Part shown: positions 2,183 through 44,800 of the stretch, in pieces
How the letters are laid out: the number at the start of each line of letters is the position of its first letter
Position numbering within the stretch: the first letter of the stretch is position 1
IMG/VR virus record: IMGVR_UViG_2871871566_000003
Coordinates: 11,671 to 75,670 of that record
Length of the DNA: 64,000 nt
From: a virus
Taxonomy: Duplodnaviria > Caudoviricetes
Direction: 5' to 3' (one strand)
Notes under the pieces: generated by a model
What the model saw: the letters and a program-made list of their open reading frames with translations, nothing else
Database searches by the model: none
What the model was told of the DNA's origin: nothing
Position numbers and translations under genes: made by a program

Positions 2183-2620
2183 ATGGAAAGTATGCACGAA
2201 GAAATTATAGGAGCAGGAGTAGCTAACTTATTTATTGAGCGAATGAAGTTAGAGGGATGGTTGCCAATTAAAGAGTATTTCAAGATGGAAAAACTTGGAA
2301 TTGAGCTTGATTGGGTATTGGTTCTTACTATGGAGAATGATGGATTTATCGCAATACCAATGGTAGCAGAATATCTTGTTCCACATAAATATAGTGGGCG
2401 AAAATCTGGTTGGTATAAAGATGATATTGATAATCCAAATAGGAGAATTGACGATTGGACTAATGTCATCATGTTCAAACTTTTAGATAAGCCTTATATT
2501 GACGAAATAAGGGATTCTATTCTTGACAAATATAAAGAGTCTGAAGGTGTTACAGATACTCATGCTTATAATTTGTCTTTCAATGAGACGGTTATTAAAC
2601 AATGTAAGGGAATTAAATGA
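2183..2620 (+). CDS. Hypothetical phage protein
   Basis: 145-aa ORF in the array. Confidence 0.75.
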   Translation: MESMHEEIIGAGVANLFIERMKLEGWLPIKEYFKMEKLGIELDWVLVLTMENDGFIAIPMVAEYLVPHKYSGRKSGWYKDDIDNPNRRIDDWTNVIMFKLLDKPYIDEIRDSILDKYKESEGVTDTHAYNLSFNETVIKQCKGIK

Positions 2621-2629
2621 TTATAGCGT

Positions 2630-3097
2630 ATGAAACAAAGAATATTAGATATGTGTTGCGGATCTCGTATGTTTTATTTCGATAAGCAAGACCCACAGGT
2701 TCTTTTTACCGACATAAGAGAATATCACGACACATTATGTGATGGACGCAAATTAGACGTACAACCCGATATGATAGCCGATTGCACTAATTTGCCATTC
2801 GAAGATGAAACATTCAATATGGTTGTATTCGACCCTCCTCATCTGCTAAAAGTAGGACAGAACTCATGGTTATGCAAGAAATATGGTAAGCTGCCCGAAA
2901 ATTGGCAAGCATTCATCAACGATTCTATCCATGAGGGCATGAGGGTGCTGAAAACAAACGGAACACTCATTTTTAAGTGGAACGAGCAACAGATAAAGGT
3001 TAGTGATGTGCTAAAGGCAATCACCGATTACAAACCTATATTCGGGCACCGTACCACCATCAAGAACCAAACTATTTGGATGGCATTCATGAAATAA
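2630..3097 (+). CDS. Orphan SAM-dependent (amino-DNA type) methyltransferase
   Basis: ILDMCCGSRMF SAM-binding motif and VVFDPPH catalytic-type motif. Confidence 0.85.
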   Translation: MKQRILDMCCGSRMFYFDKQDPQVLFTDIREYHDTLCDGRKLDVQPDMIADCTNLPFEDETFNMVVFDPPHLLKVGQNSWLCKKYGKLPENWQAFINDSIHEGMRVLKTNGTLIFKWNEQQIKVSDVLKAITDYKPIFGHRTTIKNQTIWMAFMK

Positions 3098-3105
3098 ATA
3101 ACCCA

Positions 3106-3148
3106 CAATCCCCACCCAGCTATCACAGCCGAGTGGGGATTTCTTTTC
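3106..3148. terminator. Probable bidirectional intrinsic terminator
   Basis: ATCCCCAC...GTGGGGAT stem followed by TTCTTTT, between convergent genes. Confidence 0.65.
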
Positions 3149-3209
3149 GCAATGAAACAATCTACTTAAAACCTAATTAATACAACTAACAAAAATAAAA
3201 AAGTAAAAT

Positions 3210-3521
3210 CTATACCAATCTATCTATATATTTATCTAAATCCTTTTCGTACCAAACTAGCTCGGTCCATCCTTTCCGCTTTTTACCATTTGGCAGCCTG
3301 CCTTCTTTCACAAGGCGGTCAAAGGTAGCCCTAGAAACATGAACATATCCGCATGCCTCAGCCTTGCTGATAGGCTCGTCTTTGTTGGCTATGCGGTGCA
3401 GAAAATCTAACATGAAAGCATTTTGCTGTTTGTTAGTTAAGCATCTTCCGCTCTGAATCCGCTCATGAAATTCCATCAGGAGCGAATCAATCATCTGCAG
3501 TTCTTCGCTAATCTTCGCCAT
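3210..3521 (-). CDS. MerR/AlpA-like HTH DNA-binding protein
   Basis: ISKAEACGYVHVSRATFDRLVKEGRLP wHTH signature. Confidence 0.7.
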   Translation of the reverse strand: MAKISEELQMIDSLLMEFHERIQSGRCLTNKQQNAFMLDFLHRIANKDEPISKAEACGYVHVSRATFDRLVKEGRLPNGKKRKGWTELVWYEKDLDKYIDRLV

Positions 3522-3524
3522 AAG

Positions 3525-3965
3525 CTAGCACTTTTTGTTTCTATACCAGAGAGTGAACCCAATCGCGCAAGCCGCCAGTACGAACAGAAAGGCGATATAG
3601 CATCTGCCCAGCGACATCAGCCTTTGCTCGTTCTTCGTCAGTTGCCGCTCTATAGGATAAGGCACGGCTACAGAATCCCTCTTGATGATCGTGTCCGTCT
3701 TCACCTTATATATATTATGATACCGGTCCCGATAAACCACCTTATTATGGAAAACCGTATCACCCTTCTGAAAAACATATACCGAATCCTTCATGTAGAT
3801 ACTATCCAACTTAGCAAAAGTATCAGTTCTGCATACGTATTCAGTTCTAACAGAAGGAATCTTGATATATTCCTTCGTCTTGCATCCTGTAAATGCCAAT
3901 AGGATAATTCCAATCACCAGCCCGATGCAAGCCAATTTCCAAAACCTTATGTCATACCATTTCAT
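3525..3965 (-). CDS. Lysis-cassette lipoprotein (spanin-like)
   Basis: Lipobox LLAFTGC, C-terminal TM helix, follows the endolysin. Confidence 0.6.
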   Translation of the reverse strand: MKWYDIRFWKLACIGLVIGIILLAFTGCKTKEYIKIPSVRTEYVCRTDTFAKLDSIYMKDSVYVFQKGDTVFHNKVVYRDRYHNIYKVKTDTIIKRDSVAVPYPIERQLTKNEQRLMSLGRCYIAFLFVLAACAIGFTLWYRNKKC

Positions 3966-3968
3966 AAG

Positions 3969-4412
3969 CTATATATCTTTGTATTCAACTTTAGCGTCAA
4001 AGCAAGGGCACTCCTTGATTCTCTCCCAAGGATCCACTACGCCGTTATGGTTCCTGTCGGGCGAAATATCTCTGTGCCCCAAGATTTCAGCATCCGGATA
4101 TTTCTTCTTCAGCTGAGTGAGCAGAGTGATAAGCGATTTCTTCTGCTCCTCAGTTCTGTTGTCTACCGCCTTTCCCTTCTTGTTGATGCCGCCAACATAA
4201 GCCACATTGATAGCCGTAGCATTATATCCCTTCACACCGTTGCTAACCATTTCTACCGGCAGCATCTGGTGAATCCCACCATCAGCAGTAATCACATAAT
4301 GGTAGCCTGGGTTATTCCAACCTTTTCGCTTAAACTCATCCCAAAGCTCCTTCACGCCCCATTTCTGAGAAGAGGCACTGCAATGAACAAAAATTCTCTT
4401 AATCAGTCTCAT
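3969..4412 (-). CDS. Endolysin, N-acetylmuramoyl-L-alanine amidase (Amidase_2, T7-lysozyme-like)
   Basis: IFVHCSA, GYHY, GHRD, CPCFD zinc-amidase motifs. Confidence 0.92.
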   Translation of the reverse strand: MRLIKRIFVHCSASSQKWGVKELWDEFKRKGWNNPGYHYVITADGGIHQMLPVEMVSNGVKGYNATAINVAYVGGINKKGKAVDNRTEEQKKSLITLLTQLKKKYPDAEILGHRDISPDRNHNGVVDPWERIKECPCFDAKVEYKDI

Positions 4413-4852
4413 TTCTTCTCCTCCTTTCCCTGCTCCTTTATAATCTCAGCAAAAGCTCTGGCCAAGTCTTCTTTGTTCTCCAGAAGAATGCTTACCGTCT
4501 TCTCCTGCTTCCGTATCTCAGCCTTCTGCCAGCTCTTCTCTCTTACGCTTACAAATTCACAGAACACGCAATAGCCTGCCCAAATCATAGAGAAGACAGG
4601 GAAGGGGAGAACCGTACAGGCTATCAGGTCTATGCAGACCGTCACCATGAAGGGAGAGAAGTATTTCCTCGCCTTGTCGCAAGTCTTCTTGAATCCTGTA
4701 CTTGTCGTAGCCAGTCCGTTTTCTTTCGCTTTCTTGATGCCAAAGAACAGGTCCACGCCCATAGAAATGATAAGAGCACCCATGCAGATGGCAATAACCA
4801 ATGCCGATCTGTACAGGTGCTCTTGTAAAAATGTATGTACTATCTCTGCCAT
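4409..4852 (-). CDS. Phage holin
   Basis: 2-3 TM segments; 4-bp overlap with the endolysin. Confidence 0.75.
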   Translation of the reverse strand: MAEIVHTFLQEHLYRSALVIAICMGALIISMGVDLFFGIKKAKENGLATTSTGFKKTCDKARKYFSPFMVTVCIDLIACTVLPFPVFSMIWAGYCVFCEFVSVREKSWQKAEIRKQEKTVSILLENKEDLARAFAEIIKEQGKEEKK

Positions 4853-4920: not shown

Positions 4921-5382
4921 TTAGCTGTTCATGTACCACCAGATTTTATCTGTAGGGTGGTTTGTCGATTCGTCACAGAGGAAACTGATAGCAAGTTCCG
5001 AAATCCTTTTTCTTGTGGTGTCTTTGTTCTTCGACCATTTGCCAACCACGTCTATATGGTCAGCATACATCTTATTCATCGTTACCGCAAAATCCCAGAA
5101 GTTGTAGTCCGGTATGTTCCATGATAACCTTTCATAGTCCTCCTTCAACTCATCAAACCCGAAGTAAGGAGCATACTTTTTGTGAACATCATCATCAAAA
5201 TAATAGATGTTGGCGATGCAGGCTCTGCCCAGTTGCTCGTCAAAGTGATGCTTTCTTTCCATCCAGTAAAGAAGATTCCTCTGCACAATCCTCTCTTCTT
5301 CCTCTGTAAACCCACACTCATCGTTTCTTAGCATCCCAAAGGCAGATTCTGCTATTCGATAGAGCGATTTTGATAAATCCAT
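4921..5382 (-). CDS. Hypothetical phage protein
   Basis: 153-aa ORF, YNFWDFAVTMN motif. Confidence 0.75.
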   Translation of the reverse strand: MDLSKSLYRIAESAFGMLRNDECGFTEEEERIVQRNLLYWMERKHHFDEQLGRACIANIYYFDDDVHKKYAPYFGFDELKEDYERLSWNIPDYNFWDFAVTMNKMYADHIDVVGKWSKNKDTTRKRISELAISFLCDESTNHPTDKIWWYMNS

Positions 5383-5804
5383 AAGCGTAAAGCATTAAAG
5401 TGAATATGATAAACACATGGTGCATCTCCAGCTGCTCGGGAGTGATGAGCCAGTGCTGATAATACAATCTGATAGCGTTGATACCAAAGAAATAAAAGAA
5501 CGGAATGCGATAAATCCAGCAGTATCTGAAAAAGAAACTAACCGGAATCATGGATAAAGGCATATAGATATACGCCAGTATGTAAATCCAGATGATGCAG
5601 TTGCCGCTATAGTTGGTATCTATTATGGTAGGTCTAGGGATAATGCCCATAGTCCCATACGCCGTACCAATGACCTAACATCAATGGTATGGGTGCCCAC
5701 TTTGCTAGAAGTTCATAGAACCTCCAAATCTTCCTACTCAATAAGCCTTCCATTACTAAGGCTTCCTCCTCTTTCGAGAGAGGTGATTCCTGTTTTGTTC
5801 TCAT
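5318..5804 (-). pseudogene. Membrane protein gene split by a 1-nt frameshift
   Basis: ATG 5804 reads MRTKQESP...WDYGHYP then TAG at 5636-5634; continues in another frame (RPTIIDTN...TM helices) to 5318; total span is 3n+1. Confidence 0.6.
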
Positions 5805-6005
5805 TTTGTTATGATTTTATGGCTTAATCTTACCTTTTGTTAACTGTTTCTGAGGTTTGCATCTCATTTTGTTGCAAAGTTAAACTTTTTCTTTCGTAAC
5901 ACCATGAAAACCAACATAATATTAAACTTATTTAAATCTTTATGTGCTTATTTGGTCATATTCTAAATAATATGTATATTTGCAACATCTTAATGTAGCA
6001 TTTAT

Positions 6006-6461
6006 ATGGCAAGAGCAAATTACGAATTGATTGACAGACAGAGGGATGATCTGATGAAGGCGTATCGGGAGATAGCTCCTAATTGCCATTCCCAACAGGA
6101 GGCTTGGGAAAAGGTGGTCCATTCTCCTGCTCCCAGATACTATGTTTCTCCCAAAAGAGCTTGGGATATACTCCGCAGAATGGCAGTCGGTGATTTCTCA
6201 AAGGTGGATAGCATGAAGCCGATTCGGCAGAAGTTATACTATACTCTCTTCAATAGGATGAACGAAATGACGCAGCGCAAGGAGTTCGTAGGCAAATCTT
6301 TATGGTTTATATGCCAGTTCCTTGTTTCTGAGCCTGCCCCCGAGTTCTTTATCCAGCCAAGTAATCTCAAATTCATTTTCGCTTACTATAAGAAATATGG
6401 GAAAAATTACAGAGAAATGGACCTTCGTAAGAAGAAACTTTCGCACAAAGCTGGTGCTTAG
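6006..6461 (+). CDS. Hypothetical helical protein, possible transcription regulator
   Basis: Two SPAPRYY/EPAPEFF repeats; own TATATTTG -7 box upstream. Confidence 0.7.
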   Translation: MARANYELIDRQRDDLMKAYREIAPNCHSQQEAWEKVVHSPAPRYYVSPKRAWDILRRMAVGDFSKVDSMKPIRQKLYYTLFNRMNEMTQRKEFVGKSLWFICQFLVSEPAPEFFIQPSNLKFIFAYYKKYGKNYREMDLRKKKLSHKAGA

Positions 6462-29873: not shown

Positions 29874-32800
29874 TTATTCCAATCTATCCAGTTCATCCAC
29901 CGCATCCATCATGATCCTGTCAATATTCTGGTTAGCGAAGTTGATGCTCTCGGTATCAGAAGACTTATCTCTGAGCTTCTTCCATCGCTTCATCTGCTTC
30001 TCTGCCAGCTCGATGATTCTAACCTTGGCAGCCTCCTTGGAGTTTTGGAATTGATAATACTCACCTATATTCGTGATTCTCTTGTCAAGTGGAACGTTCT
30101 TCGATTTCAGTCGGTCTACGTTGGCCATGGTCTTCTCCATTTCGTCTTTATAGTTATACCACTTGCTCTTTGTTCGCTGCAAGCTGCTCTGCTCGCTAGG
30201 CGTATAAAGAAGGGAACGAAGGAAAGGAATGTCCTTGGTTTCAGTATCTTTACCGTTCTTTATTAAACCGCCAACTCGCTCAACGAATGTTGCAGCACCA
30301 CCAAAATAACTTCCGTAGAAGTGATGCAAGGCAGAAGGATTTGTAACCGCATCCAAGAAGTCATTGCCTTTCATATCCTCGTTGCCCGGCGCAACATCAT
30401 TTGTCAAGGCATTAACCTCCTTATTCCTATTAATCATCCACTCTGGCGTTCCCTTATATGCAAGCATCCATGATGGCTGATTCTCATCGAACTTATTTTC
30501 TCGCTGAATAGGAGCACCCTTCCAATCGCTATTATAAACCCACTCCAGGAAAGGAGAAGTTGCAGAAGGGGCTAACGCCTTGATGGTTTCCTGCCAAGGA
30601 TGCTTGCCAAATGAAGAGTTGCCAAGATAATCTGCTACTGGGACCAGCTGAGACATGCAGCCTACAGCGTCCATAAACGGATTCAGATACTTGTCAATAT
30701 CCTTATTCTCCGTAAGGTTCGGCATCTTCTGGCTTGAAATATTCTTCGAGAAAGTCATGCCGGCAGCAAAGTCACCCAAGCCATAGAAAGCTCTCTCCTC
30801 AATCGCAAGCGGAATAGTAACAAACTCTCCACCGCCAATATACACACAGAGGTTATTTCTTCTGATATAATCAGGCAGCTCGCCGTATGGGTCCTTCACG
30901 CCCTTTCTATCTTTCTCGTCCTCATTACTGATGATGAAGTTATTAAGAAGGGCCATGGCCATACCACTAATAAATGGAGCACTGGCAATATAGCCGATGG
31001 TTCCAACCTTGTTGTTCTTGAAGTTCTTAATCAGGAGATTAGTACTCTGAATACCGGCATTGAAGAACATGGAAGAATTTCTGAACCATGAAGCTGTGAA
31101 TCCATAGATATTCCTTCTTGCAGTCTTAAAAGACCCCATTTCTCCATTCTTGAAGGAGTAAACAGCATTACCAGAACCATGTCGGTTAAAGTTGGTAGAT
31201 ACTTTCTTCGCGTCATAAACAGAACGGATAATAGAACGGTTACTGTCTCGGCTAGCGCAATAGGTTGCGAAGCGAGCAAGATTCTCTGCAATTTCGTTTA
31301 CATTCTCCAAGTTTTTGAAGATAGCATTATAAAAGCCCTTTCCGACTTTTTGAACTCTGCTTCGTTCACCTTTAATGTGCATCTTGTATTCCTTGGTGAA
31401 GTCCTTCATGTTCTTGATTTGTACCCAACCGGTTTCGCCTCCGTTCTCCATGAACTCCTTGAAGTATCTATGTAATTTGTTGGTAGTATCAAGTGTACCA
31501 TTGCGATACTTGGCATAAAGACCGAAGCCGCCGGTATCTGCAAAGTCTTTCAACTTTGAATTTCTGATTCCCTCAATAATACCAACCTTTGCATAGTACT
31601 GTTCAAATCTCTTGGTATAAACAAGACCTTCATTTGCCAAGAGGTTAGTCGATGCATACTCAAAGTCCTTGATCATATTTCGCATCACGAACTCAGGATT
31701 GTATGAAGTACAGAGTTGAGCCATATTTCTTGAAATGCTAGCGGCTACTCGTCCTGCAAGTGTATCATTCTTATGCTCCAGCAATCCATTCAACGCCTGC
31801 GCTGCTCTAGGATTTCCGTTAATAATAAAAGAATGTGTCCTTCCGGCAATCTTCACATCTACGATATGCTGCGATTTGTTCTCTGCTCTTTGGAACTTAT
31901 ATCCGATACTGCCCCTGCGGTAAACCTTCGACGCCAAACCCTGTGCAGACTTCGCATTCATGTCCGTATTGAAGTCTGCAACTATCTGGTTGATTTCGTC
32001 TGGGGTAGCATCATCAGGAATATCTGGATAACGCTCATATACGATACCAGTCATAGGGTCCTTCTCGTACCATACGCTTACTTCGGTAATCAGATTATTG
32101 TTCGAGTTGTTTCTTGCGAATCTTGCAAACGCCATTTTGATGGCATTCATACCACTGTTCTTGATGGCTCTGTTGCCCATCGCACCAATCTGCGCCAGCA
32201 CGTTTGTCTCACTCAGATACTTGTGTCCTCTCGCTCTCATAATCGTGCTTCCGATGTAACTCTTCGGGTCGCCCTGCTCAGTAATGTAGCCGTAGGTATC
32301 TTCTGCAGTAGCCTCATCATACTTTCTCAAAGGCACATACCAGTTGAACATATTCGATACATGGCCGTGCAATTCCTTACTGATGATACCATTCTTGTAA
32401 TCGCTGTCAATAGAATACTGGGTAGCAGCCTTCACCTTTTCCCAATAGTCCTTCACAGCTCCCTTCTTGATGCTCTCCATCTTCGCTTCCGAATCCATCA
32501 CGCTCTGAATAGCCTCGGCATCATTGTAAGGGTCAGAAGATTTCGCCACCTCCTGAATAGCGTGCATACCCGAATAGTCGTGCTCGCCAGCATCGAAGTC
32601 TGCATCAAAGTGATTTCTGATACTCTCATCCAACTGTCTGTAGTACTCCTTCAGGTCGATGTTGCCAGCCTTCAACTCGTTATCAAGATACTCCTTATCG
32701 CTATAATAACTGTTTTCCAAGAAGTCAGCATCCTGCTTCTTCTGCTCGTCCATCCTCATCTTCTTCAGGAAGTCACGAACAAAGAACACTCTGTTTCGCT

Positions 32801-35800
32801 CCAAACCATGCTTGGTAATCATGTAGAGATTGAAGTTTCTGATCTTCTCATCATCCTTCTTGCCATCGAAAGCATCCAGTACGCCGGCCATGGCCTTATC
32901 AAGAGGCTTCATTACATTGCGCTCAAACATCTGAGCCGCATCACTCATCGCGCCCTGCATGGTGTTCTGCAACATATAAGGATTCTCCGAAGAAGCAATA
33001 TCCTCAATCTTCTTGTCAGGCACAATCGCATTCATCAGTTTCTTCAACGAAAGCATATTGTCCATATAGCTCTCGGTAAACATATAGCCATGCTCGTCAA
33101 GTGAACGATGGTATCTGTCAAGTGCCGTGCCGGCAGATGGGGTAGTACGGAAGTGAATCTCACCATCTGTAACCTCATTCCACTCAGCCTTGGTAAGATT
33201 ATCCATACTTCTAACCTTTCCGTCATTTCCGTAGAACATGCCATCGTGCGCCACGACAGCAGGCATACGCTCATGGTCGAGACGGTATTTCACCGCCTCG
33301 GCTCTAAGTTTCCAATAAGGATCATTTGGATTCTTCTGCAAGTTCTTGCTCAACCAGAGCAGATACTTCACATCTTTAGTATTAGGAGCAACACGATAAC
33401 CGATTTCATGAAGGAAATCAGATACCTTGTTTTTGATACCATTCCAGAAGCCAGCTTCACCCTTGCCATCCTCGGCGAGTCGCGCGATACCTTCCTCAAT
33501 AGCATCATAGATATTCAGAGGATTGAACTTTCTCTCCTCATCCACCAGCTTCTTCAAAGCCGCATTCTCAGGCTTATCCAAGTCGTACCACACTTCACGA
33601 AGGAACTTATCGAATCGTTCATCACCAAACAACTCTCTCATTCCCTTGTGTCCAACTACCTCATGCCAGATAGTCTTCTCGGCAGTATATCTGTCGTGGA
33701 TATTAGGCATATAAAGATGCACCTCGCCAGTCTTCTCATCATACCAGCCAGTAATCTTTCTGCCTTCCTCAATAGCAGCCTTCGCCGCCTTGTTGGTGAT
33801 TTCATCAACCGATGAAACCATGTTCACCTTTGCGCCAGTCTTCTGAGCCACCTTTTCTACATGGTTTTCAACCGATGAAGTAGGGTAGTTGCCATCGCCG
33901 TGGTCCGTGCGGAACTTAGTGCCACCGTCTTTGCCCCATTCCTTGAAGGCATCCTTTGTCATTTTCACGTTGACGAACTTAGCCTGAGGGAACTCCTGTT
34001 CCAGTTCAGCCATCTGCTTCAAGAACTTCTCCTTTGTTTCAGGGTTCTGTCTGCCTTGCTCTACGGTAGTGATAGGCACACCAAGTTTTACTAACTCTCT
34101 CAACTGGTTAGGGGTAACTACGTTCCAAGGGATAGCCAATCCTGTTCCTCTCAGTTGGTCGGCGATTTTCTCAGCAACCTCCTCGTCAGGCAATATTCTT
34201 ACTGCCTTTCTCCATCTAGAGAGCATCACGCTTCTCTGTCTGTCCTTTGGCAGAAGGCTGTTGACTGTTCCAGAAGTCCAAGGCACCAAGCCCACAGAGT
34301 TCTTTGCGCCCTCGGCGTGATAGCTGCTAGTCTTCTCGCTCTCAGGAATCTCCCATTCAACAACCTTGATGTTGCCTCTGGCGTAAGCACCAGAGAACTG
34401 GTCGTTCATCACCGAAGTGGAAGTGTGCATGTAAGGGTTATAAGCCGCTGGCACTGGTCCTTCACCTGCCCCAGGGTTCTTATCGGTCTTCACAAGTTGG
34501 AACTTGCCGTTCTTCACAAGGTCCGGCCGCTCGTCTGCGCCCATCCAAGCACCAATCTCGGTAGCATCGGTACGCTTTCCGTCAATAATAGCAGCCATAG
34601 GAGAGTACAACTTTCCGTCCACCTCCTGCATACCGCTATACATTCTGAAAGTCTTTTCCTTGTTGAGGCGGTCCAACTCGTCCTTGTCTGTAACCTTATA
34701 GGCAAATCCGTCCTGCTCAATATCATTCATGGAAATATCATCAATGGTTTCATTGAAATCATCCATGATGTCGTTGATAGCCTTATCCATCTTATCCTTC
34801 TCAGAAACCTCAAAGAGCTTCTTCCAAGCATCCTTCAAGCGTTGCAGGATAGAACGGTCGCCCTTTCTTGCAAACTCATGTGCTGCATTCACAACTTTAT
34901 CCCAGATAGACAGGCCCATCGCCTTTCTCTGTCTAGAATCTGCCATCTGAGCAGTCAGCTCGTAAGCATCAGACAGACCGTAAGGCTCTTCTTTGAAGCG
35001 TTCCTTATCGTCCTTTACCTTGTCGTAGATTTCGAGGATGGTCTTTACGCCCTCTATCTGCTTAGGAGTCAGCATGCCCTCAGCCTTGCCTTTCTTAACG
35101 AGATTGATAGCACCCATTGTTACCTCATGAATCATTTCATGCAGCATAATAGTAGGGGCAGCGTAGTCTGGAGCCTTGGTCTTTGTCAGGCCATCAATAT
35201 ACAAATCAATGTTCCTGTAGGTGTCTGCTTCTCCTGATCTCTTCTTCGGACTCTCGGCACTTACCTTGATGTTAACACCAAGACGTTTGTTTATATCGAG
35301 AACTCTTTGGAAGAGTTTAGCCTTTCCTTTATCTCTATTTGTTTCTTTAAAAATTCGTTCAACGGCTCCAAGTGTGAACGCTCCTCCTGGCTGCAATCCC
35401 CAAGTCTCTCTGAGATTCTTTGCTCTAGCGTCTCTATAGGCAAGTTCTCTGTCAGCGACGGCGAGAACGGTCTTATAATATTGCAGTAGATAAGAGCCTT
35501 TATTTCCCTTACCGTCGTTCTTACTACCAAGATGTCGTCCGGTATGCTGTCCTGATAACTTTTCAACTTTTCTTTCATAATCATTCTTGAAATATTCTAT
35601 AGTACTTCTGCCATAATCAGAAAAATCATCCAAGGCAGAGCTTACATCATTAATAATTCCAGACTTATCTCTGTCTTCTGCATGCTCTACAATGTCTTCA
35701 ATGGCAGAATCAAACTTCTTTTCAATCTGCGAAGATACGTTTTTATCTACATCTTCGGGAATGATTCTACCTTTCTTAACATCTTTTGTATCTGTTTTAG

Positions 35801-38800
35801 AATACTGCAAGCCTCGGTCCTCACGGAAGTGGGTACCTTCATCCTGAGAAGTATTGCGCTCCTCCTGTACCTTCACACCCATCTTAGACAGGCGGTCCAG
35901 TACTGGCTTCAACTGCTCAGGCTTAAACTCAGCAAGCATATTGTTGCCTCTGGTTTCGAAGTTATTGCCATTAACCAGTTTCAGCAAATCTTCATCCATG
36001 AAGTACTTGCCGCCCTTTGCCTTGCTCTTTGGCACACGAAGTTCGAAGTAGTAGCCACGATTGTTGTCTATGCGTTTCACCTTTACTTCACCATCCGATG
36101 AAGTAACCTCGTCAATACCGCCGTGCCATGATGAAAGTTCAAACTTATCTACCACGCTGTTGATAGGTGCATCCGTAGTCAAGCCCTTAGGGTCGAATCT
36201 ATCTGGCATCAAGATACCAGTCTTCACCTCGCCAGTATCAGTTGTATATTTCACCAACTGACCGCCCAAGCCCTGATCCTTGCTGTCAACCAAAGCCTGC
36301 ATCAGATTACCAGTTACAATATAGCCATTCTTGCGGCTCTCATTGCTAGTCAGTCTATCCCAGTTATCAAAGTTTTGGTTCAATACTCTGAGATGGCTGT
36401 CTCCCATACCGGCAGCCTGCTTGGTCATGCGATCGATAGAACCGATAATATCCACCTTGTTTTCACCAGAACCCACCTTGCCGGCAATAGGGAAAGTAAT
36501 CTTTCTTCTGCCATCCAAGGTGGCAAAAGATACAGAAGAGGCGTTAGGCGAGAAGTTATCCGTAATCTTAATATCAATGAGTCTTCCGTAACTGTTACCG
36601 AATCCGCTCAGTTCATTTGGATTGTTCATATCTGCAGGCAGAACGAAAGCGCTGTTAGTATCGAAGGTATCAAGCACACGCTCAAACATTTCAGCCTTAG
36701 CTTTCAGATTCTTCACCACATCGTTCAGCTTATCTTTCTCCTGCTTGTAGATGTTGTCATACTGATAGCCAGCCATCTTCTCAATCTGCTCATCGCTCAT
36801 GCCCGAATCCTTCTGACCCTTCTTGCCATCTTTGATATACTTCTCCTTAGCCTTGGTTGCAGCCTTCACGGAACGATCCTCATACTTCTGAGTCTCGTCA
36901 GCAATCTTCTGGTCGAAGTACTCTTTCACGGCAGTCTTCTTCTCGGTCTTGTATTCATCCCAAGTCTTGCCGCCAGTCAAACCATTCTGCGAAGCCTTCA
37001 CCTCAGAAGCCTTCATTGGCTTCTTCAAGATGGCCATGTTCACCTTTTCTATATAGGTGTTGTCGGCAAAGGCATTATCGCCGCCCGGCTCTGCACCCTG
37101 CTTCCAAACTTCCTTGTGGAGAGTCTTAGCCTTCAAAGGCAGCTCGGTAATCTCAAGGTCATTCTCACCCATTTCGTTGAGTCGCTGAATCTCGTTGGCA
37201 TAAAGCTCGCCAATCTCCTGCAACATCTTCTCCTGTTCAGAAACTCTCAGCAGAGCCATACGCCCAAGCAACTTGCTTGCATCGGCACCAGCTTCTTTTC
37301 CACCAAGCTTTCCTCCAGAAGTAACAATGAGTCTCTGAGGGTCAATAGTAGATAAATCTTCACCGAAAGAGCCTTCCCATCCGAATGGGTCTGCCATGCG
37401 AGCATAAAGGTCAAGATGTTCTGCCATGTATTCTCTGACAACCTTATCACCATACTTGTTGATAATATCAGAAACCTCCATGTCGTTGAACTTACTCTTC
37501 TGAGAAGAAGTTGTGTTGGCATCAAGTGACTTCAATTTAGCCTTAAACATCATCAGCAATCGCTGCTCAGATGGAATTTGAGAAACAATATACTCATATC
37601 TACCACGGTTAACCTGTCCTGTTCGATCAATACGACCACGCATCTGTACTTCCTCGTTCACATCTGGTTGTTGCTGAACAACAATCATAGTACGTGGCTT
37701 GTGCTCTACATCGTACTCCACAGAGTCATGCAACGAAATACCTGTAGAAGCACTTCGGTTAAGAATTAAGGCATCAAGCTTGTTGGTATTAAAATCAAGG
37801 GCAAGCTTCTTTTTGTCCGTATTAGTACGTTTAACTTTTGATACGGTTCCATTTTGATTCTTAACAAACATAGTTTGTCTTCCAGTTAACTCTCCTACAC
37901 GATAACCAGCTGCTTCGAGTTCGTCACGAACAACATCAATAGGAGAGAGTGAAAGACCTGTTGAGGCATTCTTTATATTATCCTCAATTTCATGATAACG
38001 AGCAACAGCATCAGGACCTAAATCTTCAAGATTAAAAGTGCCGAATGTCTTATTACCCATATCGTCTGTTTGATCATAGCGAAGGACGCCCTGCAATCCC
38101 TTCATCAAGACAACGCCCAAGTCTGGTGCTTCCATTTCTGCATTAGCCTCATACTGTTCCGTCTGGCTTTCATTTGTATTATTAAGGGCGATAACCACCT
38201 TTTCTCCATTCTTTAAATGCTCGATGGCACTTTTAGCTGCTTCTCTTGCTTTCAAAGATAGAAGTACCTGCTGAACCATATTATAGGTTCTGCTTGCAAA
38301 TGGCTGGTTATGAATACCAAGGTCTTTTGTTCCTTGTCTGTTTTTGATGGATGCTTGGATAGCAGCAAGTTCATCATTGCGCTTATCAAGATAAGCACCT
38401 ACGTAAGTTCTTTGGAAATTGATAATATCATTAAACAATCCGATGATACTATCATACTGTTCTCGCTGTTCTTCAACAACAACAGGATCGTCTATCGTTT
38501 TCCAGTCAATAGTCACGCCAGTCATATCTCGCTCACGGCGAATAAACTGACCGCTGGCAGTAAGTGCTTGCGACATGACTTCCTGCAAAGTAGCTCCACC
38601 ACGCTTGATGGCATCAATGAGTTCGGATGGTTTCATTCCTGCCTGGTTCATAGAGGTGCGCAAAGCGTAGATAGGCATATTGTCTGGTCGCTTTGCATAG
38701 GTTGCTGATAGGAAAGTGATAGCGTTGAGCTTTGGAACAACATATTGCAAATAAGCGGAACCACTACCTTGACCTCCTGCCTTGTGGCTCTCATCCATGA

Positions 38801-41800
38801 TAACGTTGGCATTCTTTGCTATAGCTTCCAAAACATCACGTTTTCTTTGTCCGTTCTTTGAACCTTTACCATTCTTTCTTACCGTTTTCTTTCCATCCTC
38901 ATAATCCATAGTTCCACTAGAGAAACTATCATACGTAGTAACGATATAGTCATATCCGTCTGGTAACTTACCATTCTTTTGAAGATAATCCATCACTCGC
39001 TCCTGCTCTTTGTCAGAAGATAATTGATAGACTAACTTGCCTTCCGAGTCTGTCATGTCGGCAGAGTGTTCCTTGTCCTTTGCAGCCCAAATAAAAGGAC
39101 GCAAGTCAGAATTACCAATACTCTTCAAATCTCTGTACATATCGCTAAATAGAGCCTTCTTGGCTGTGATAAATACAGGAATCTTACCTTGCTTATAGGC
39201 AAAGCGAATCATGGCAGCAGCCTGTCTTCCCTTACCGATACCAGTCATGTCACCGATAATGAAAGCATTTCCTTGCTTAGCTTGATGGATTGCAAGTGCA
39301 ACGGAATCTGCTTGCTCGGATGCAAGTGCATGGTGCATATCGTCTGCATCGTTATAGCCAAGTTCATCAACCAAGAAGCTATCAACATCGCCAATCTTCT
39401 CCAAGGCTTTCTTTGTCGCTCTGGCTTGGTCGGCAGGAATAACCGAGTTGAGACTGAAAGGGTTGTTGCTTTGAGGAACGTATTTCACCTTTTCGGTACT
39501 CAACTCACGCTTAGGTGATTCTTCTTTTTTTACTCCCAGTCCATTTCCCTCTCGTGTGGGAACAGTCCGCTGAACGCTGCTGCTGGAACGTCCTTGTCCT
39601 CCTTGTTGCTTTCTATCTCCTCCTGTTCCTCTTTCGTTGCTGGTCTCATTGGCATTCCTAGCAACTGAGCCTTCAGGTACTCGCCCTCCGTTGTCCAGTC
39701 TAGAACTTGCTGAGCCAGTTCCTCTATCTGCTCCAAAGTCGGAATCTCTTCCGCTTTCCAGTTCGGCGTTATCTCCCATGTGTTCAGATGGAGTTCGTTC
39801 AGTTTCTCCCATAGGTCGCTCATCACTTCCTCCGGTTCCCAAATCTGATATGAATCCATCAGGTCCAGAGCCATGCTCCTTGTTATTTGTGACTCCGTTA
39901 CCACCTCGCTCTTTTTGTCTGAGACTATCCCCGGAAACGTCAGAAACACGTTCTCTGTTGGAAAGTCCCAAGGGTTCTTTCTGCACCCCTCGTTTACGTA
40001 ATATGTCATCTTCAATTCGTTTATAAAGTTCGTCATAATCTTTCACGGCTTCCGCTCTAGCATCCTTATCAACTGGTGGGAACACCTTGTGCTCAGGATC
40101 GTAATTGCGTCTTCCGTTTATTAATATAATACGTGTAGGATAGCTGGTTCCCTGCTTTGCATAGAGACTACCATCCACATTAATCACGTCCTCCACATTA
40201 TAGTGGCTATAGAGATAACCAAGGAAAGCCTTATCCTTCGGATTCAGACTTCCGTTCTTGGCGTATTCCGTCTTGCCGCCAATAATAATAGCAGCACGAC
40301 CATCGTCCTTCATGCTCTCCAAAGCATTGATAGCCATCTGTCCTTCCAAAGAAGAAATCTTGTAGCCGTCATACTCCTTAGGGGTAGCACTACCGAATGG
40401 TGGGTTTGTTACCACCACGTCAACGTCCTTGTCTGCAAAAGGCTGGGTTCCATCCTGACTGGTCACGTTCTTGAAGCCCTGTCTTCTCAGGTTCGCCAAT
40501 CGCTGGGCATCAATATCGTTCACATGTACCTTATCCATTGGCAGACCGATGGTAAGCATACCGTTGCCGGCACTTGGCTCCAGAGCACTCTCAATCACCT
40601 TACCATTGCCCTTCACATACATGTCTGCAAGGAAGGCGTAAGGGGCAGGGGTAGAGTACTGCTGTTTCATCACTCGCTCAGAATCTCTCTGGTTGAGGCT
40701 AGGCTGATTCTCATAGAGTGTCTTGATGCGTTCAAACTTCACAGCATCGTTGGTTGATTCAGAAGAAGCGATACCTCTTGCTCGCTTAACAATAGCTGTT
40801 TCAGCAAGCTCCTGAAGGTCTGTGTCCTTAATATCCTTCAAACCAACTCTCTCAGCTATCTTTCTCAGCTCAACAATACCGTTAAACTTATGTTTGAAGC
40901 CCAACTGCAGGTTCACAACATCAATAAACCTCTTCTCAGCCATCTTTCTTTCCTCGGCAGTCTTGGAGTCGCCCACCAGATTCTCCTGATGCTTAGGCGA
41001 AGTCTTCTCGTAGTAGTCAGCCCAATCCTTCAAGCTCATGCGCTGCTCGCCATCGCGATAGCGGATATTCATCATCTGCTCATAGATAGCATCCACGTCT
41101 TCCTTCTTAAAGAGCTTGGCAGCAGGGGCAAACTCCTTGCGCATTTCCTTCACCACGTCTTCAAGATTGTGCATACCTCTCTTGATTCTCAGATAAGCAT
41201 TTTCGGCCATGGCGCTCACCAGCTTAGGCAATACTTCCAGCTGTCTAGAGTTAAGACCAACAAACGAAGCAGAAATTTCATCCTTGCCGGCATTCTTGAG
41301 CATATCCCAAAGGTCATTAACCTTCTTGTTGGAAGCTGCTACTGCTGCATCGTCAGCCTTCTGCTGAGGCTTCTTCTCTGTCTCAGCCTTAGTTTTCTTC
41401 TCCTTTCCAAAAGCTTCTGCTGCATTCTTGATTCCCTCCATAGGGTCAGCAGATGGTTCCTTTTTTGGAGCCTCAACCTTTGGTTCAGTCTTCTGCCCTC
41501 TAGTCTTGGCAAAGATGCTTTCATAGATAGCACGATGCAAATCATCTGTCACCTCACCGTTCAGATAATCAAGAGCCATATCCTTGGACAAATCATCCAC
41601 GTCTGCCTCCTTGATCTCATCCTCAGTCAGAGGATGCTCCTTCTTGAATTCCTGGGCGGCCGCCGCAATCGGGTCAAAAGTAGGGTCTGGGTTCTCTTCT
41701 TTAGGAAGGAGTGGGAGAGGTTTTTCTTTTACCTTACCGTCAACATATTCGACAACCTCATTCAGGTCACCATACTTCTTGCCATCATACTCGTAGTATG

Positions 41801-44800
41801 AGCCAGTGTATTCGCCCTTCTCGTTTGGCTCATCAACCTTGATAACCTCCTTGTCTCCATCAATCAGAATCTTCTGCTTCATGATAGGACCATTCTTTGA
41901 TGGAGTCTCGGTTTCCTCGTCAGTAACCTTAATACGACTTTCGAGTTCCTTGTTTACTAAGTCGTCTGGTTCCTCTACTCTTGTTCGTTCTGGTTCTGTT
42001 CCTGCTTCTGCTGGTTCATTTCCTCCTGATGCTTCTTGTTGAGGTTCTTCAACGCCTGAAACATCATGGCTTCCTTCTGTTTCTGAATGTCCTGTTCCAT
42101 AATCTTGCCATTTTTTAAAGTTCAAATACTCATTAATTAGCTCTTCCTTGGTAGGAGCTGCCTCAAACATATTGCCCTCGCCAGTATTTCTAGCCTTAGC
42201 GATGCGGTTGTATTCGTCAAGCAAATCTCTGAAATCAGAAACCTTGCCCTCCAAGGCTAAAGCCATCATCTGAGAGATAGAAGAGTAACGCTTAGCCGCA
42301 TCCTCACCGAACATGTCTGGTGTTCTCAGCAGCGTATCAACCTTATTGCCGCCCTGTCTTGCCTCATAGAGCAATTGGATAGCCTGATCAATTTCATCAC
42401 GAAGAGAGAACTCGCCCAGCTTCATGTTGTCCATTACCGAGCGGATAGCGTTGATAGCCTTATTCTTCACCGTAGAGTCGATGCCCAGCATTCTGATAGT
42501 CTCTGGCTTGAAGATTGAACCCAAAAGAAGGTTCTTCACATACTCCCTGCCTTGTGCAGAAAGTCGCTCAGGACTATCCATCATCTGTGCCACCTCGTTC
42601 TGTCCGATGATGCCTTTATCTACTAACGTCTTCACCAAGTCATTTATTGCCTTGGAATTGTTAAAGAAAGCATCAAGAGAACCATTTCCTTCAATCTCGG
42701 CAACAATCGCGCCTACCTCGTCAGAAGTCAAGGTCTTAGCCTTGGCAACCGCCAGTTCGGTATTGCTCTGAGTCTTCTTCTCGTTTCGGTTAAACTTAGC
42801 GAAGGTAGCTGCATCGTATGGCAATCTCTCATCCGTCACCATTACCAGACGAGGATGCTCGATTCCGCTCTGCTCAATCTGCTCTCTGGTAAAGCCGAAG
42901 TTCTCGGCATTTTCCAGAAGGTCGTTGATGTATTCGCCGTCCGTGCCTTCCTTTGCAGCCTTCTGTCCTGCCATCGTTCTGCCGTTGCCATCATAAACGA
43001 TACCTTCGTCAGATACAACCGGCACATTCTCGATAGCCATACCATTATACTTCATGGCAATCTGGTCGGTATTCTGCTGAGCCGCCTTGTCGTGCTCATA
43101 GTCACGATCGTTCACGGTTCTACCCTCAGCATCGGTAGGGAATCCCTCAGATTTCTTATAGTCGTTATTCACATCATGAGAAGGAGTAAGACTTTCTGCC
43201 GGCACAATCTCATAGTGTCCCTTAATCTTGGTCTCTCCGTCAGGCAGCATTCTTGTGCGTTTGTTGCCCACAAGTCTAGGTGCATTCACAAACTTCTGTG
43301 CAGCCACGCTACCAGCCTCATGCGCACCTTCAACCTGTTCTGTCTTACCCACGGTCTCGGCAACCTTCTTGGCAGTCATAGCCTTCTTGATATTCTGAGC
43401 GTGGGTCAACTGCTTCTTGGCAGCTTCAATAGTCTGATTCTTCAAAGTCTCCTGCTCCATGATGTCGTTAGGCTCGGCGGTATAGTCCACCTTCATCTTC
43501 TCGGCATCCTTCAAAGCCTTCTCTGCTTTCTGAATCTGTCCGTCCACTACCTTTTCAGCATTCTCCCCGAAATCCTCAGTAAGAATCTCCGCACTCTGCT
43601 CAGAAGTCATACTAGCATAGTCTGGCGTAGGTCTTCCCTTACTGTCCATAGCCATAGGAACATCAGAACCATCGGCAAACTTTCTGCTAGGCTGAGGCTG
43701 CTCTACTTGTTGAACTGAGGCATCGCCTTCGCTAGCATTTTCCTCTGCTTCTCCATCACTTCCACTATTGGCATTGTCGCCTTTTCGAATTTTTCCATCT
43801 GTTTCATTGTTACTAATCTCTTCATTTTTATTTTCTTTAGGTTGAACTTCCTGCTGTGCCTTGGCAGCATCCTGCATAGCCTGCTCCTGTGCCGCCTGAT
43901 TGTAAGGCTCAGAGTTCTTCATCTGCAATCTCTGACGATATTCTGCAGCAAACTGGTCAATAGGCTGGTTTTGAACCAGAGTAACCTCATCTGCCTTCAC
44001 ATAAACCAATTCCTTGGTATTAGGGTCCAGGCAGACAAGCATATCGCCGCTTCCTTCCTTAGCTCTGCCAGTAGTCTGGTCGAAAGCAACATCACCCGAA
44101 CCAACAAGAAGTGTTCTTCCGCTGCTGTCTTGAACATACAGAGCCTGCTCGCCATTCATCGCATGACCGTTCAATGTTCCGTGATAGCTCCAATCAGAAA
44201 TAAAGCTCTTCACGTTTTCCTCTATAGCATCAGCAGTAGCCTGCTGCATACCCTGCACTCTAGCGTTCGCATTAATATATTGGGCAAGTGGGGTCAACTC
44301 TTCTTGGGTCAATCCATTCTGAATGAGTGCATCGTAAATCTGTGCCGGCGTCAAGCCCTGCTGGTGCAATTTCTCAAAGGTTTGCTTGAACACATCGTTG
44401 CTATCCATCGCTGCATCAATGGCTTGCTCTGCGTTTCGAAGGTTGCGCAATTCATCAACTACCACGCCGCTGTCCGGGTTGTCCGTTCCCAGACTATGCT
44501 CCTCGGCAACCGTCTTACCTTGGCTGGCAGACTGGTCTGCGTGTGGTCTCCAGCTAGGGAAAAGCTCATCTTCGAGTGCTCTCTTCACATGATAGAAGAT
44601 TCTGTTCTCCTCATCGGTACGCTTCATTGGGTCCTTGCGCATGATTTTGTCAATATCAATAACAATGCTTCCTTCTTTACCAAGAAGTTCTTTGATAGAA
44701 GCCATGAAGTTATTAGTATAACCTTTGCTTTCTGATCTGAGGTAACCAAGCAAGCCGTTCTTATCCGCATACTTCTCCCAGTAAAGATAGAGTGCGCTCT

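Follow-up and report, generated by a model that had tools for sequence, protein, structure and literature searches.

The giant gene of this phage very probably codes in two frames at one of its inter-domain linkers and probably does so at a second, as judged by comparing its sequence with those of homologs. At the first of these sites, beneath the linker between a methyltransferase (MTase) and a helicase, the +1 frame would encode an independent acidic α/β protein of about 145–160 residues (ORF3). Selection appears to act on this inner-frame protein, the outer 480 nucleotides being a putative polar, low-complexity tether that is free to vary. The second site, ORF2, gives a similar signal. Two other candidates, ORF1 and ORF4, simply follow from the composition of the linkers.

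The giant gene and its reading frames

The source is a human-gut Segatella/Prevotella phage with a dsDNA genome of about 70 kb. In the window, the whole stretch of 64,000 nucleotides that was analysed, the outer gene is a single ORF of 17.4 kb (29874–47279, minus strand, as for all features described here) encoding a polyvalent protein of 5801 residues. Pfam assigns ddrB-ParB, N6-MTase-like, Strawberry-notch-type helicase and LPD38 domains. The methyltransferase core (residues 2237–2339, positions 40263–40571) matches MTS and UPF0020 with scores that are both under the curated cut-off, and the domain ends near residue 2425 with a conserved motif, KDYDELYKRIEDDIL, immediately at the start of ORF3. 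The helicase (37146–39278) consists of AAA_34 (residues 2668–2883, E = 1.5e-11) and Helicase_C_4 (residues 3127–3378, E = 6.4e-21). The comparison set was about 90 homologous giant genes; the 80 homologs from IMG/VR span 2899–6127 residues, mostly 5000–6100, with three running off the 5′ end and one off the 3′ end of their contigs.

The first-pass annotation described four ORFs inside this gene. The gene and the ORFs lie at the coordinates it gave, and every start is at an offset of 3n+1 from the outer ATG. That all four share the +1 frame is true but uninformative about gene status. Just 11 ATG ORFs occur in the +2 frame, with a maximum of 17 codons, and with that frame practically closed +1 is the only one left for a further ORF on the sense strand. 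The coincidence of ORF starts with linker starts, also remarked upon, is expected from the genetic code. A +1 stop (xTA|A, xTA|G or xTG|A) requires an outer Leu, Ile, Met or Val codon, with T at the second position, so that polar linkers open automatically; these four residues make up 7–14% of the linkers against 21% gene-wide. The ATG contexts quoted for the four ORFs are present, although their order was wrong; GAATGATTATG, given for ORF4, is the context of that ORF's second ATG. At three of the four proposed ATGs the outer frame reads Asp-Tyr-(G..), encoded by GAT TAT G.

In 1000 synonymous shuffles of the window's giant gene the longest +1 ORF was 127 ± 27 residues, with a probability of 0.09 of reaching at least 168, and there were 21.8 +1 ORFs of at least 40 residues as against 19 observed. 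Within the single genome nothing exceeds chance. The figures are fully compatible with all four ORFs being compositional accidents, stop-poor polar linkers whose conservation reflects simple descent, and the closed +2 frame leaves only +1 for such accidents to occupy. Close relatives also retain chance +1 ORFs at other places, and two divergent relatives (L169, L170) show unrelated +1 ORFs of 47–50 residues under other linkers. This explanation holds for ORF1 and ORF4. As an account of all four it is extremely improbable, for reasons that emerge from the homologs of ORF3 and ORF2.

ORF3 and its overlap with the outer frame

ORF3 (39530–40009, 159 residues) runs from an invariant ATG at 40009 to a stop codon at 39532–39530. 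A +1 ORF of 144–168 residues is open at this site in nearly all of 84 homologous loci, among them 76 of 80 homologs less than 70% identical at the DNA level, and likewise in nested lineages that are further removed (L165, L167, L169 and L170). There are 65 distinct inner proteins, which share 27–36% identity with that of the window, save one at 75%.

Among the 5801 codons of the outer gene, diversity at the third position falls below that at the first only at residues 2401–2580, where the ratio is 0.5–0.8 as against 1.1–9 elsewhere. Read in the inner frame, diversity follows the order 3 > 1 > 2 (0.227, 0.150 and 0.106 respectively), as expected of a +1 frame on the sense strand but not of an antisense frame. 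Values of dN/dS (NG86, 1987 pairs) are 0.17 for the inner and 2.49 for the outer frame. The common variants comprise 48 that are outer-silent and inner-changing versus 103 that are inner-silent and outer-changing, compared to 84:27 in the flanks (Fisher P = 1e-12). The probability that the inner frame is open given the outer protein is 2–17% per lineage; given the inner protein the outer frame was open in none of 3000 shuffles in each of eight lineages. Together these low values indicate that both frames are maintained. By these comparisons the outer frame is held open by selection and, with dN/dS above 1, its peptide seems to retain openness only. A strictly open outer frame means that the MTase and helicase remain on one polypeptide. 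A compositional accident is excluded at ORF3 by the openness at this level of divergence, the opposed dN/dS values and the unique inversion of codon-position diversity, together with a confident fold and non-overlapped homologs.

The product is strongly acidic, with a pI of about 4.3 (4.05–4.4 in the family) and 29–36 Asp and Glu residues versus 8–16 Lys and Arg. It carries no signal peptide or lipobox, and has the character of a folded, cytoplasmic-type protein. The AF2 model derived from a diverse alignment (pTM 0.79, mean pLDDT 79.8, 63 residues at 90 or above) is a compact domain of predicted α/β fold. Searches of Pfam, PHROGs and NCBIfam gave no match, there is no PDB sequence match, and fold comparison was likewise negative with a best VIA-align Z of 2.9–3.2. 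Judged by these searches, the product belongs to a new protein family.

The start had been placed nine codons upstream, at ATG 40036 (GAAAGATTATG), which is not the conserved one. A TAA separates the two ATGs in L085, L153, L154, L160 and L169, and ATG 40036 is absent from L170 and L004. Met10, the start at 40009, is invariant, with GATG in 81 of 81 sequences. The intervening stretch (40010–40036) is conserved because it encodes the outer motif KDYDELYKRIEDD, and its codons are probably not translated within the nested protein. The position of the TAA also bears on a programmed +1 frameshift, which would yield a truncated fusion of the N-terminal 2424 residues with an acidic tail. The two frames do overlap in the same direction and every nucleotide of the junction (..GAA GAT GAC..) is conserved. 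However, in the five lineages just named and in L170 the +1 TAA lies two codons before ATG 40009, leaving scarcely any room for a shift, homologs that are free-standing or only partly overlapped share this initial Met (M[TAI]YY), and the protein recovered by gene callers starts at profile position 10. We find a frameshift hardly credible.

Internal initiation at the invariant AUG 40009 is the route we infer for the inner protein. The sequence around this AUG is A-rich and ranks with the least structured stretches of the transcript, the folding energy being −2.5 kcal/mol compared to −11.1 ± 3.8 kcal/mol for the gene. Such a patch would suit initiation without a Shine-Dalgarno sequence, as is usual in Bacteroidota, and the protein could be translated from the giant mRNA or from an internal transcript. 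Upstream of ORF3 on the coding strand there is no canonical sigma-70-like promoter and none of Bacteroidota type was seen by eye; the RNA-library data for the locus are assembled contigs only, and mute on starts, strand and level.

Members of the family also occur outside the overlap. In one locus (L166) a homolog, P0022, shares 50% identity with a nested member (E = 3e-44), and stops abound in the frame equivalent to the outer gene. P0023, present on five contigs from independent sources, is an ordinary gene of 388 residues whose C-terminal domain belongs to the ORF3 family. The outer frame of L168 terminates within the overlap. The family is thus nested at most loci, overlapped in L168 and separate in L166 and P0023. 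The free-standing homologs, which sit on short metagenome contigs of 0.95–2 kb, branch within the nested clade.

The shorter ORFs

ORF2 (41975–42100), a Q/E/K-rich ORF of 41 residues under the linker that follows the ParB-like region, displays a signature like that of ORF3 but weaker, and on balance these data favour its being a second nested coding ORF. The +1 frame has a pN/pS of 0.27 versus 0.85 for the outer frame. This is the lowest +1 value of 377 windows (background minimum 0.66), and third-position diversity is the second lowest within the giant gene. The outer pS is 0.098 compared to about 0.3 in the flanks. An accident of composition leaves unexplained both this reduction of outer synonymous diversity to one-third and the gene-lowest +1 pN/pS. 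An ORF of 33–47 residues with the core KEAMM(F/L).A.KNL occupies the site in all aligned homologs, and TATG marks the start in 76 of 76.

The same conservation might reflect a nucleotide element (structured RNA, a regulatory site or a junction left by recombination) or a functional short linear motif of the outer linker, a reading that we consider possible if doubtful. The peptide is of low complexity, the signal comes from some 19 common variants across the 41 codons, and it stands out only marginally from other relaxed linkers (Fisher P = 0.056). A 60-nucleotide block near ORF2 and in the same gene (40173–40235) is strongly conserved at the nucleotide level without any ORF. Such an element fits poorly with variants that gather at +1 third positions (11 inner-silent versus 4 outer-silent), with a +1 pS of 0.24, a normal synonymous level, alongside a pN of 0.064, or with an ATG and frame that survive even in divergent versions with indels. 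The match to phage codon usage is +0.72 in the +1 frame versus −0.10 in the outer frame.

ORF1 (43703–43825, 40 residues) lies in a hypervariable polar linker, and its stop-to-stop frame has an ATG further upstream at 43870 (55 residues). One to three +1 stops interrupt it in 71 of the 76 homologs, neither frame is constrained (pN/pS 0.82 in +1, 0.87 outer), and diversities of 0.27/0.24/0.32 at positions 1/2/3 are those of a relaxed linker. ORF4 (35291–35584, 97 residues) sits in a hypervariable region formed by a swappable cassette, and most homologs carry another cassette in its place. Its +1 pN/pS is 1.00 over all homologs and 0.73 among 22 with the same cassette, where the outer value is 0.35. 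Retention in 21 of 21 close relatives is matched at equal divergence by control chance ORFs (9/9, 60/68 and 24/27). Neither is supported as a nested gene. The gene-within-gene proposal stands for ORF3 and probably for ORF2, fails for ORF1 and lacks support for ORF4. The related idea that linkers are by-products of overprinting fits the ORF3 linker, where outer dN/dS exceeds 1, but not those of ORF1 and residues 811–900, which are ordinary relaxed linkers.

Cassette exchange, precedents and a possible role

ORF3 and the helicase motor are swapped together as a recombination cassette (outer residues about 2425–3200, positions 37680–40007) between otherwise nearly identical phages. Compared in windows of 100 residues, the outer proteins of the window and L086 are at least 87% identical over residues 101–2400, mostly 93–100%, with three exceptions (two hypervariable linkers at 53–59% and one window at 80%). 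Identity is 34–72% over residues 2401–3200, then mostly 78–100% from 3201 to about 5200. Across the exchange the MTase retains 94–98% identity, the inner protein 22–33% and the helicase 52–60%. Contigs X7 and X8 break at 39995. Co-inheritance may alternatively reflect plain physical linkage, and in L168, L166 and P0023 the ORF3-family protein has no adjacent helicase.

This co-inheritance is one of several observations in accord with the suggestion that all four ORFs are expressed, each supplying the adjacent effector domain with a small cognate inhibitor or chaperone. The coding signatures of ORF3 and ORF2, the unusually unstructured RNA around the ATGs of ORF1, ORF2 and ORF3, and the ability of nested Rz/Rz1 partners in phage lambda to interact (PMC6139136) also agree with it. 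The stops in ORF1 and its want of constraint in either frame, the +1 pN/pS of 0.73–1.0 and cassette replacement of ORF4, and the occurrence of the ORF3 family away from both MTase and helicase make it very unlikely as a general scheme.

For dual coding at ORF3 itself, lambda Rz/Rz1 provides the closest precedent: an inner phage gene wholly embedded, in the +1 frame of the same strand, and missed by gene callers. The spanin family has embedded, partly overlapped and separate arrangements (PMC6139136), as does that of ORF3. Rz1 is a proline-rich lipoprotein of 40–60 residues, whereas ORF3 would encode a folded protein of about 150 residues and is not a lysis gene. Here the outer gene is a polyvalent enzyme of 5801 residues that is overlapped at an inter-domain linker, with the inner product folded and constrained and the outer segment disordered. 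Small viruses offer further parallels in phiX174 B/K/E and tombusvirus p19 within p22 (PMC8227390), with long same-strand dual coding, asymmetric constraint between frames and one ordered product set against another rich in disorder-promoting residues. A dsDNA phage of about 70 kb is under no obvious genome-size pressure, in contrast to those viruses, and here the overlap falls in a tether between enzymatic domains.

Polyvalent proteins with a DNA methylase-helicase dyad, including a named Strawberry-notch-like variant, have been described by Iyer, Burroughs, Anand, de Souza and Aravind (2017, PMC5512222). The outer gene fits this type, with many domains, an MTase followed by an SF2 helicase, ParB-like and LPD. 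A word search of that article turned up nothing on overlapping or frameshifted coding, or on a gene nested inside another, for polyvalent genes and, unlike the dyads as described, the linker here would double as a separate gene.

The ORF3 protein resembles T7 Ocr and ArdA in being small and strongly net negative, in lying on a mobile element beside counter-restriction enzymes and in diverging fast between strains. It differs in being predicted as a compact α/β domain and not an elongated B-DNA-like dimer, and in having no Pfam, NCBIfam, PDB sequence or fold match. DNA mimicry would be a guess by analogy. We infer that the protein acts in trans, and our best guess is that it plays an accessory role in the polyvalent counter-defence module, as either a cognate partner of the co-inherited helicase motor or a free-acting anti-defence protein.

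The giant gene and its +1 frame

On the minus strand a single open reading frame (ORF) runs from 47279 to 29874 and encodes 5801 residues, in the same window as portal and terminase genes. All four small ORFs discussed here lie inside it at an offset of 3n+1. Pfam comparisons place a ddrB-like ParB domain at residues 1350-1477, an N6-MTase-like domain, with weak signal, at 2237-2339, the AAA_34 and Helicase_C_4 components of a Strawberry-notch-type helicase at 2668-2883 and 3127-3378, and LPD38 at 5463-5686. On these assignments the outer gene encodes a polyvalent protein with an MTase-helicase dyad and an LPD domain. The dyad has been described in polyvalent proteins by Iyer et al. (PMC5512222); a word search of that paper turns up nothing on overlapping or frameshifted coding within polyvalent genes.

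A set of 84 homologous loci around the MTase-helicase junction was retrieved; 80 have flanks of up to 10 kb per side and in 76 the giant gene is complete, with most products 5000-6100 residues long. Related loci derive from Segatella and Tannerellaceae MAGs and gut viromes. Relative to the majority type, identity of the window is at least 87% (mostly 93-100%) across residues 101-2400, except for three 100-residue windows, then 34-72% at residues 2401-3200, and mostly 78-100% from there to about residue 5200. Pairwise comparisons of residues 1-5801 with loci L085-L164 reveal a strong mosaic, in which 100-residue windows alternate between approximately 95-100% and 30-60% identity with breakpoints that coincide with domain boundaries. 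Since identity switches at these boundaries, frequent exchange of domain cassettes among co-circulating phages is suggested.

The first-pass annotation took the shared +1 frame of the four ORFs as a meaningful sign. The +2 frame, however, is nearly closed, with just 11 ORFs starting at ATG and the longest of these only 17 codons, and a placement of all four in +1 is therefore forced. Their beginning at linkers carries no more weight as evidence. A +1 stop can form only where the outer codon has TA or TG as its last two bases, which restricts it to Leu, Ile, Met and Val. These residues account for 7-14% of the linkers as opposed to 21% of the whole protein, and polar linkers are thus inherently open in +1. 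Synonymous-codon shuffles that keep the protein give a longest +1 ORF of 127 +/- 27 residues, with a probability of 0.09 for 168 residues or more, and 21.8 +1 ORFs of at least 40 residues compared to 19 observed. Divergent relatives have unrelated +1 ORFs of 47-50 residues beneath other linkers. The GATTATG context shared by three of the four ORF start codons is without significance; it represents Asp-Tyr-G.. codons of the outer frame and is not at the real ORF3 start. The within-genome pattern of +1 ORFs proves nothing by itself.

ORF3 and selection in two frames

Comparative evidence establishes one nested gene, ORF3 (39530-40036, minus strand). The suggestion that a +1 ORF is kept open at its linker is borne out for this ORF, which is open in 76 of 80 homologues, all less than 70% identical in DNA sequence to the window in that region. 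There are 65 distinct inner proteins, 27-36% identical to that of the window with one exception at 75%. Shuffles that preserve the outer protein and the codon usage leave the inner frame open by chance in 2-17% of cases per lineage, and the product over seven lineages is about 2e-9.

Along the giant gene, codon-position diversity follows the usual order, the third position being far more diverse than the first two (pi3/pi1 1.1-9). The sole exception is residues 2401-2580, where the ratio is 0.5-0.8, and this segment is exactly ORF3. Within it the inner positions rank 3 > 1 > 2 (0.227, 0.150 and 0.106, respectively), an order characteristic of a gene that is read in the sense +1 frame. A gene on the opposite strand does not fit as the source of this signal, since a codon-aligned antisense frame would put the lowest diversity at outer position 2. 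Constraint is also seen when the two frames are compared directly: the NG86 method gives an inner dN/dS of 0.17 versus an outer 'dN/dS' of 2.49, the latter with a pS of 0.059. Of the common variants, 48 leave the outer protein unaltered and change the inner one, against 103 of the reverse kind, whilst the flanking domains display 84:27 (P = 1e-12). In a codon-usage test of which frame is older, both frames over ORF3 take intermediate scores, -0.07 for the outer and -0.06 for the inner, where normal coding sequence scores +0.47 and normal +1 frames -0.59.

The outer peptide over ORF3 consists of about 80% G/S/R/E/D/T/P/N/Q/K. When each of eight lineages was shuffled 3000 times with the inner protein preserved, the outer frame never stayed open, so that the outer peptide is free in sequence yet actively kept in frame. 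It follows that MTase and helicase must stay covalently joined and that this link is itself under strong selection.

The start of translation first assigned to ORF3, ATG 40036, falls within the conserved sequence that closes the MTase domain. This assignment has to be abandoned, with TAA following the codon in L085, L153, L154, L160 and L169 and the ATG itself absent in L004 and L170. ATG 40009, on the other hand, is invariant (Met10 and Met1 of inner-protein alignments A1 and A3, respectively), occurs as GATG in 81 of 81 sequences and is present in all distant ORF3 members; the database proteins of the family begin at the equivalent position. The 60 nt around it score -2.5 kcal/mol, compared to a gene mean of -11.1 +/- 3.8 and a mean of -6.7 for real gene starts of the window, which places the region in the top 1% of least structured 60-nt windows. 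Such a structure-poor, A-rich context fits Shine-Dalgarno-independent initiation, a mode established for Bacteroidota. A +1 stop two codons upstream of the ATG, present in several lineages, argues against a frameshift-fusion product. A promoter scan of the coding strand upstream of ORF3 gave no sigma-70-like site. Metatranscriptomic libraries contain related sequence as assembled contigs only, some 30 kb and possibly DNA, from which expression and transcript ends are not readable.

We note a block of approximately 60 nt at 40173-40235 (minus strand, MTase-coding, outer residues 2349-2369), about 165-225 nt upstream of the ORF3 start, that is almost devoid of synonymous variation in 80 homologues (pi3 0.01-0.03 versus about 0.22 nearby). 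It contains TTGGTT and TATAAT separated by 14 nt, together with a CCAC-TATAAT-GTGG mini-hairpin, and it varies in the more distant lineages L169 and L170. The block could serve as a promoter inside the gene or as some other DNA or RNA site, or it could mark a recombination junction.

ORF2 and the remaining overlapping frames

The four nested genes originally proposed reduce to ORF3, on the comparative evidence, and a probable ORF2; ORF1 and ORF4 are discarded on the basis of +1 stops or lack of constraint.

The 41-codon region of ORF2 (41975-42100) has the second-lowest third-position diversity in the giant gene, and the bounds of the ORF match this dip (pi3 approximately 0.3 before residue 1720, 0.04-0.12 inside and 0.26 after residue 1768). 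In the +1 frame pN/pS is 0.27 (pS 0.24) and in the outer frame 0.85 (pS 0.098); the region ranks first of 377 41-codon windows for low +1 pN/pS (0.25), the lowest of 362 background windows being 0.66. An ORF of 33-47 residues with the core KEAMM(F/L).A.KNL is kept in every aligned homologue, its ATG in 76 of 76, and codon usage in the +1 frame is closer to that of the phage than is the outer frame. We caution that the sample is small, about 19 common variants in a low-complexity peptide, and that the contrast with other relaxed linkers is only marginal (P = 0.056). On balance these patterns favour ORF2 as a second nested coding ORF.

The linker that carries ORF1 (43703-43825) is hypervariable, with several unrelated versions. 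One to three +1 stops are present in 71 of 76 homologues and both frames are near neutral (pN/pS 0.87 outer, 0.82 in +1); ORF1 is rejected as a nested gene on both counts. ORF4 (35291-35584) is located in a hypervariable, cassette-like segment at about 33960-35760 (outer residues about 3840-4440), which is replaced by unrelated cassettes in many homologues, with at least ten unrelated versions of differing lengths among them, each with its own +1 ORF of 75-145 residues and none displaying constraint in that frame. The +1 pN/pS of ORF4 is 1.0 overall; in 22 homologues with the same cassette there is constraint on the outer frame (0.35) but no clear constraint on +1 (0.73). Although ORF4 is retained in 21 of 21 close relatives, the chance ORFs used as controls are retained just as well, and it too is rejected.

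Two further +1 ORFs lie under the helicase domain. One of 54 residues (38648-38812, outer residues 2823-2877) is open in 68 of 79 homologues of less than 70% DNA identity, the other of 41 residues (38253-38378, outer residues 2968-3009) in 51 of 74. Neither is among the windows with low +1 pN/pS, and both probably arise incidentally from conservation of the outer residues. On the plus strand, many long antisense ORFs (184-443 residues) are found opposite the giant gene at 31773-44735. One of the antisense ORFs, 39637-40026, has its third codon positions in common with the outer gene, a frame usually left open by codon bias.

The ORF3 protein family and its possible role

A profile search of 1.8 billion representative proteins identified 22 members of the ORF3 family, most called on short contigs. 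Four distant lineages (L165, L167, L169 and L170) have an identical nested layout. In L168 (1-1173) the MTase frame stops inside the overlap, and the ORF3 homologue is followed by a different ORF of 138 residues with no helicase; this arrangement is 'overlapped' rather than 'nested'. In L166 the homologue P0022, 50% identical to the nested P0016 (E = 3e-44), stands alone, the outer-equivalent frame being riddled with stops and the neighbours unrelated. P0023 (L171:336-1502, also L172 and L173) is an ordinary gene of 388 residues, of which the C-terminal 125 belong to the ORF3 family and the N-terminal region, about 260 residues, is coiled-coil-like and of no known family. It occurs on five short contigs from three independent data sources (JGI, ENA and NCBI), and scans of viral and metagenome contigs with P0023 for further free-standing members returned just the same short contig. 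In a maximum-likelihood tree, with midpoint rooting only, both free forms fall inside a clade of nested forms (support 98/97), with P0023 sister to the nested P0017 (100/99). With the rooting limited in this way, the topology suggests that the free forms escaped from a nested arrangement, as opposed to a capture.

The inner protein, 159 residues from ATG 40009, is acidic (pI 4.05-4.4). An AF2 model from a diverse 31-sequence alignment (mean pLDDT 79.8, pTM 0.79) comprises five or six helices and a small sheet. Searches for relatives were fruitless. Four family members have no Pfam or NCBIfam match at E of 0.1-1 or better, PHROGs offers no family match, with a 'Mu Gam-like' hit rejected as chance (E = 0.17), and a PDB sequence profile search gave chance matches only (E of 0.4 or worse). 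Two models find no fold match in Foldseek searches of PDB and BFVD or in a wide VIA-align search (best Z 3.2 and 2.9), the ESM Atlas yields only sub-threshold eukaryotic matches, and GenBank phages have no DNA or protein match. On these sequence and model data ORF3 encodes a real, new protein family, with a confident predicted fold and no detectable relatives.

The closest parallel is lambda Rz/Rz1, where one gene likewise sits within another in the +1 frame and a single family includes embedded, overlapped and separate variants (PMC6139136). Three things differ here: the host gene encodes a polyvalent enzyme, the two genes overlap at an inter-domain tether, and it is the inner product that is folded and constrained. 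In an embedded spanin the inner product is an outer-membrane lipoprotein, with signal peptide and lipobox Cys, and the outer an inner-membrane i-spanin in a lysis cassette. The inner N-terminus in this case is M-T-Y-Y-V-N-E..., without hydrophobic signal or lipobox, and with a polyvalent enzyme as outer product the two-component spanin is rejected. The strongly acidic charge brings to mind the DNA mimics Ocr and ArdA. Foldseek and VIA-align give no structural match in the PDB. Membership of the Ocr and ArdA sequence families is rejected given the Pfam, NCBIfam and PDB profile results.

The divergent block of the giant gene, which contains the helicase motor in addition to ORF3, starts where ORF3 starts, and 39995 is the point at which contigs from other samples break. 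Comparison of allele types gives identities of 94-98% for the MTase, 52-60% for the helicase and 22-33% for the ORF3 protein; among members of one type, purifying selection acts on ORF3. Its acidity, its rapid divergence from type to type, its exchange as a cassette and the free copies seen now and then match expectations for a conflict-related protein. We favour a role for the ORF3 protein as an accessory of a counter-defence module, in which it may either pair with the helicase as a cognate partner or act on its own as an anti-defence factor. The link to the helicase may be mere adjacency, since L166, L168 and P0023 have no neighbouring helicase.

Nested genes are known in phages, yet rarely demonstrated. 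The comparative evidence here is unusually clean, with the two frames under opposite selective regimes along 480 nt of overlap, and it provides a worked example of how real nested genes are told from the +1 ORFs that polar linkers generate free. No annotation pipeline detects this new protein family, which lies within a class of genes presumed to be front-line counter-defence, and the ORF3 gene is carried by at least about 110 related gut-phage contigs. As a candidate for a new protein of Bacteroidales phages that counters defence or regulates a helicase, its product is concrete and testable, and a knockout of the inner frame that is silent for the outer frame is feasible. More tentatively, polyvalent linkers might serve as a protected nursery and carrier for small genes acting in trans. 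ORF3 would then encode a partner or counter-defence factor that has a new fold, evolves fast in step with the Strawberry-notch helicase motor, is swapped together with that motor as a cassette and has escaped at least twice, to an ordinary gene or domain; ORF2 would be a second such gene. If that reading is true, polyvalent loci encode more products than the single giant ORF suggests.
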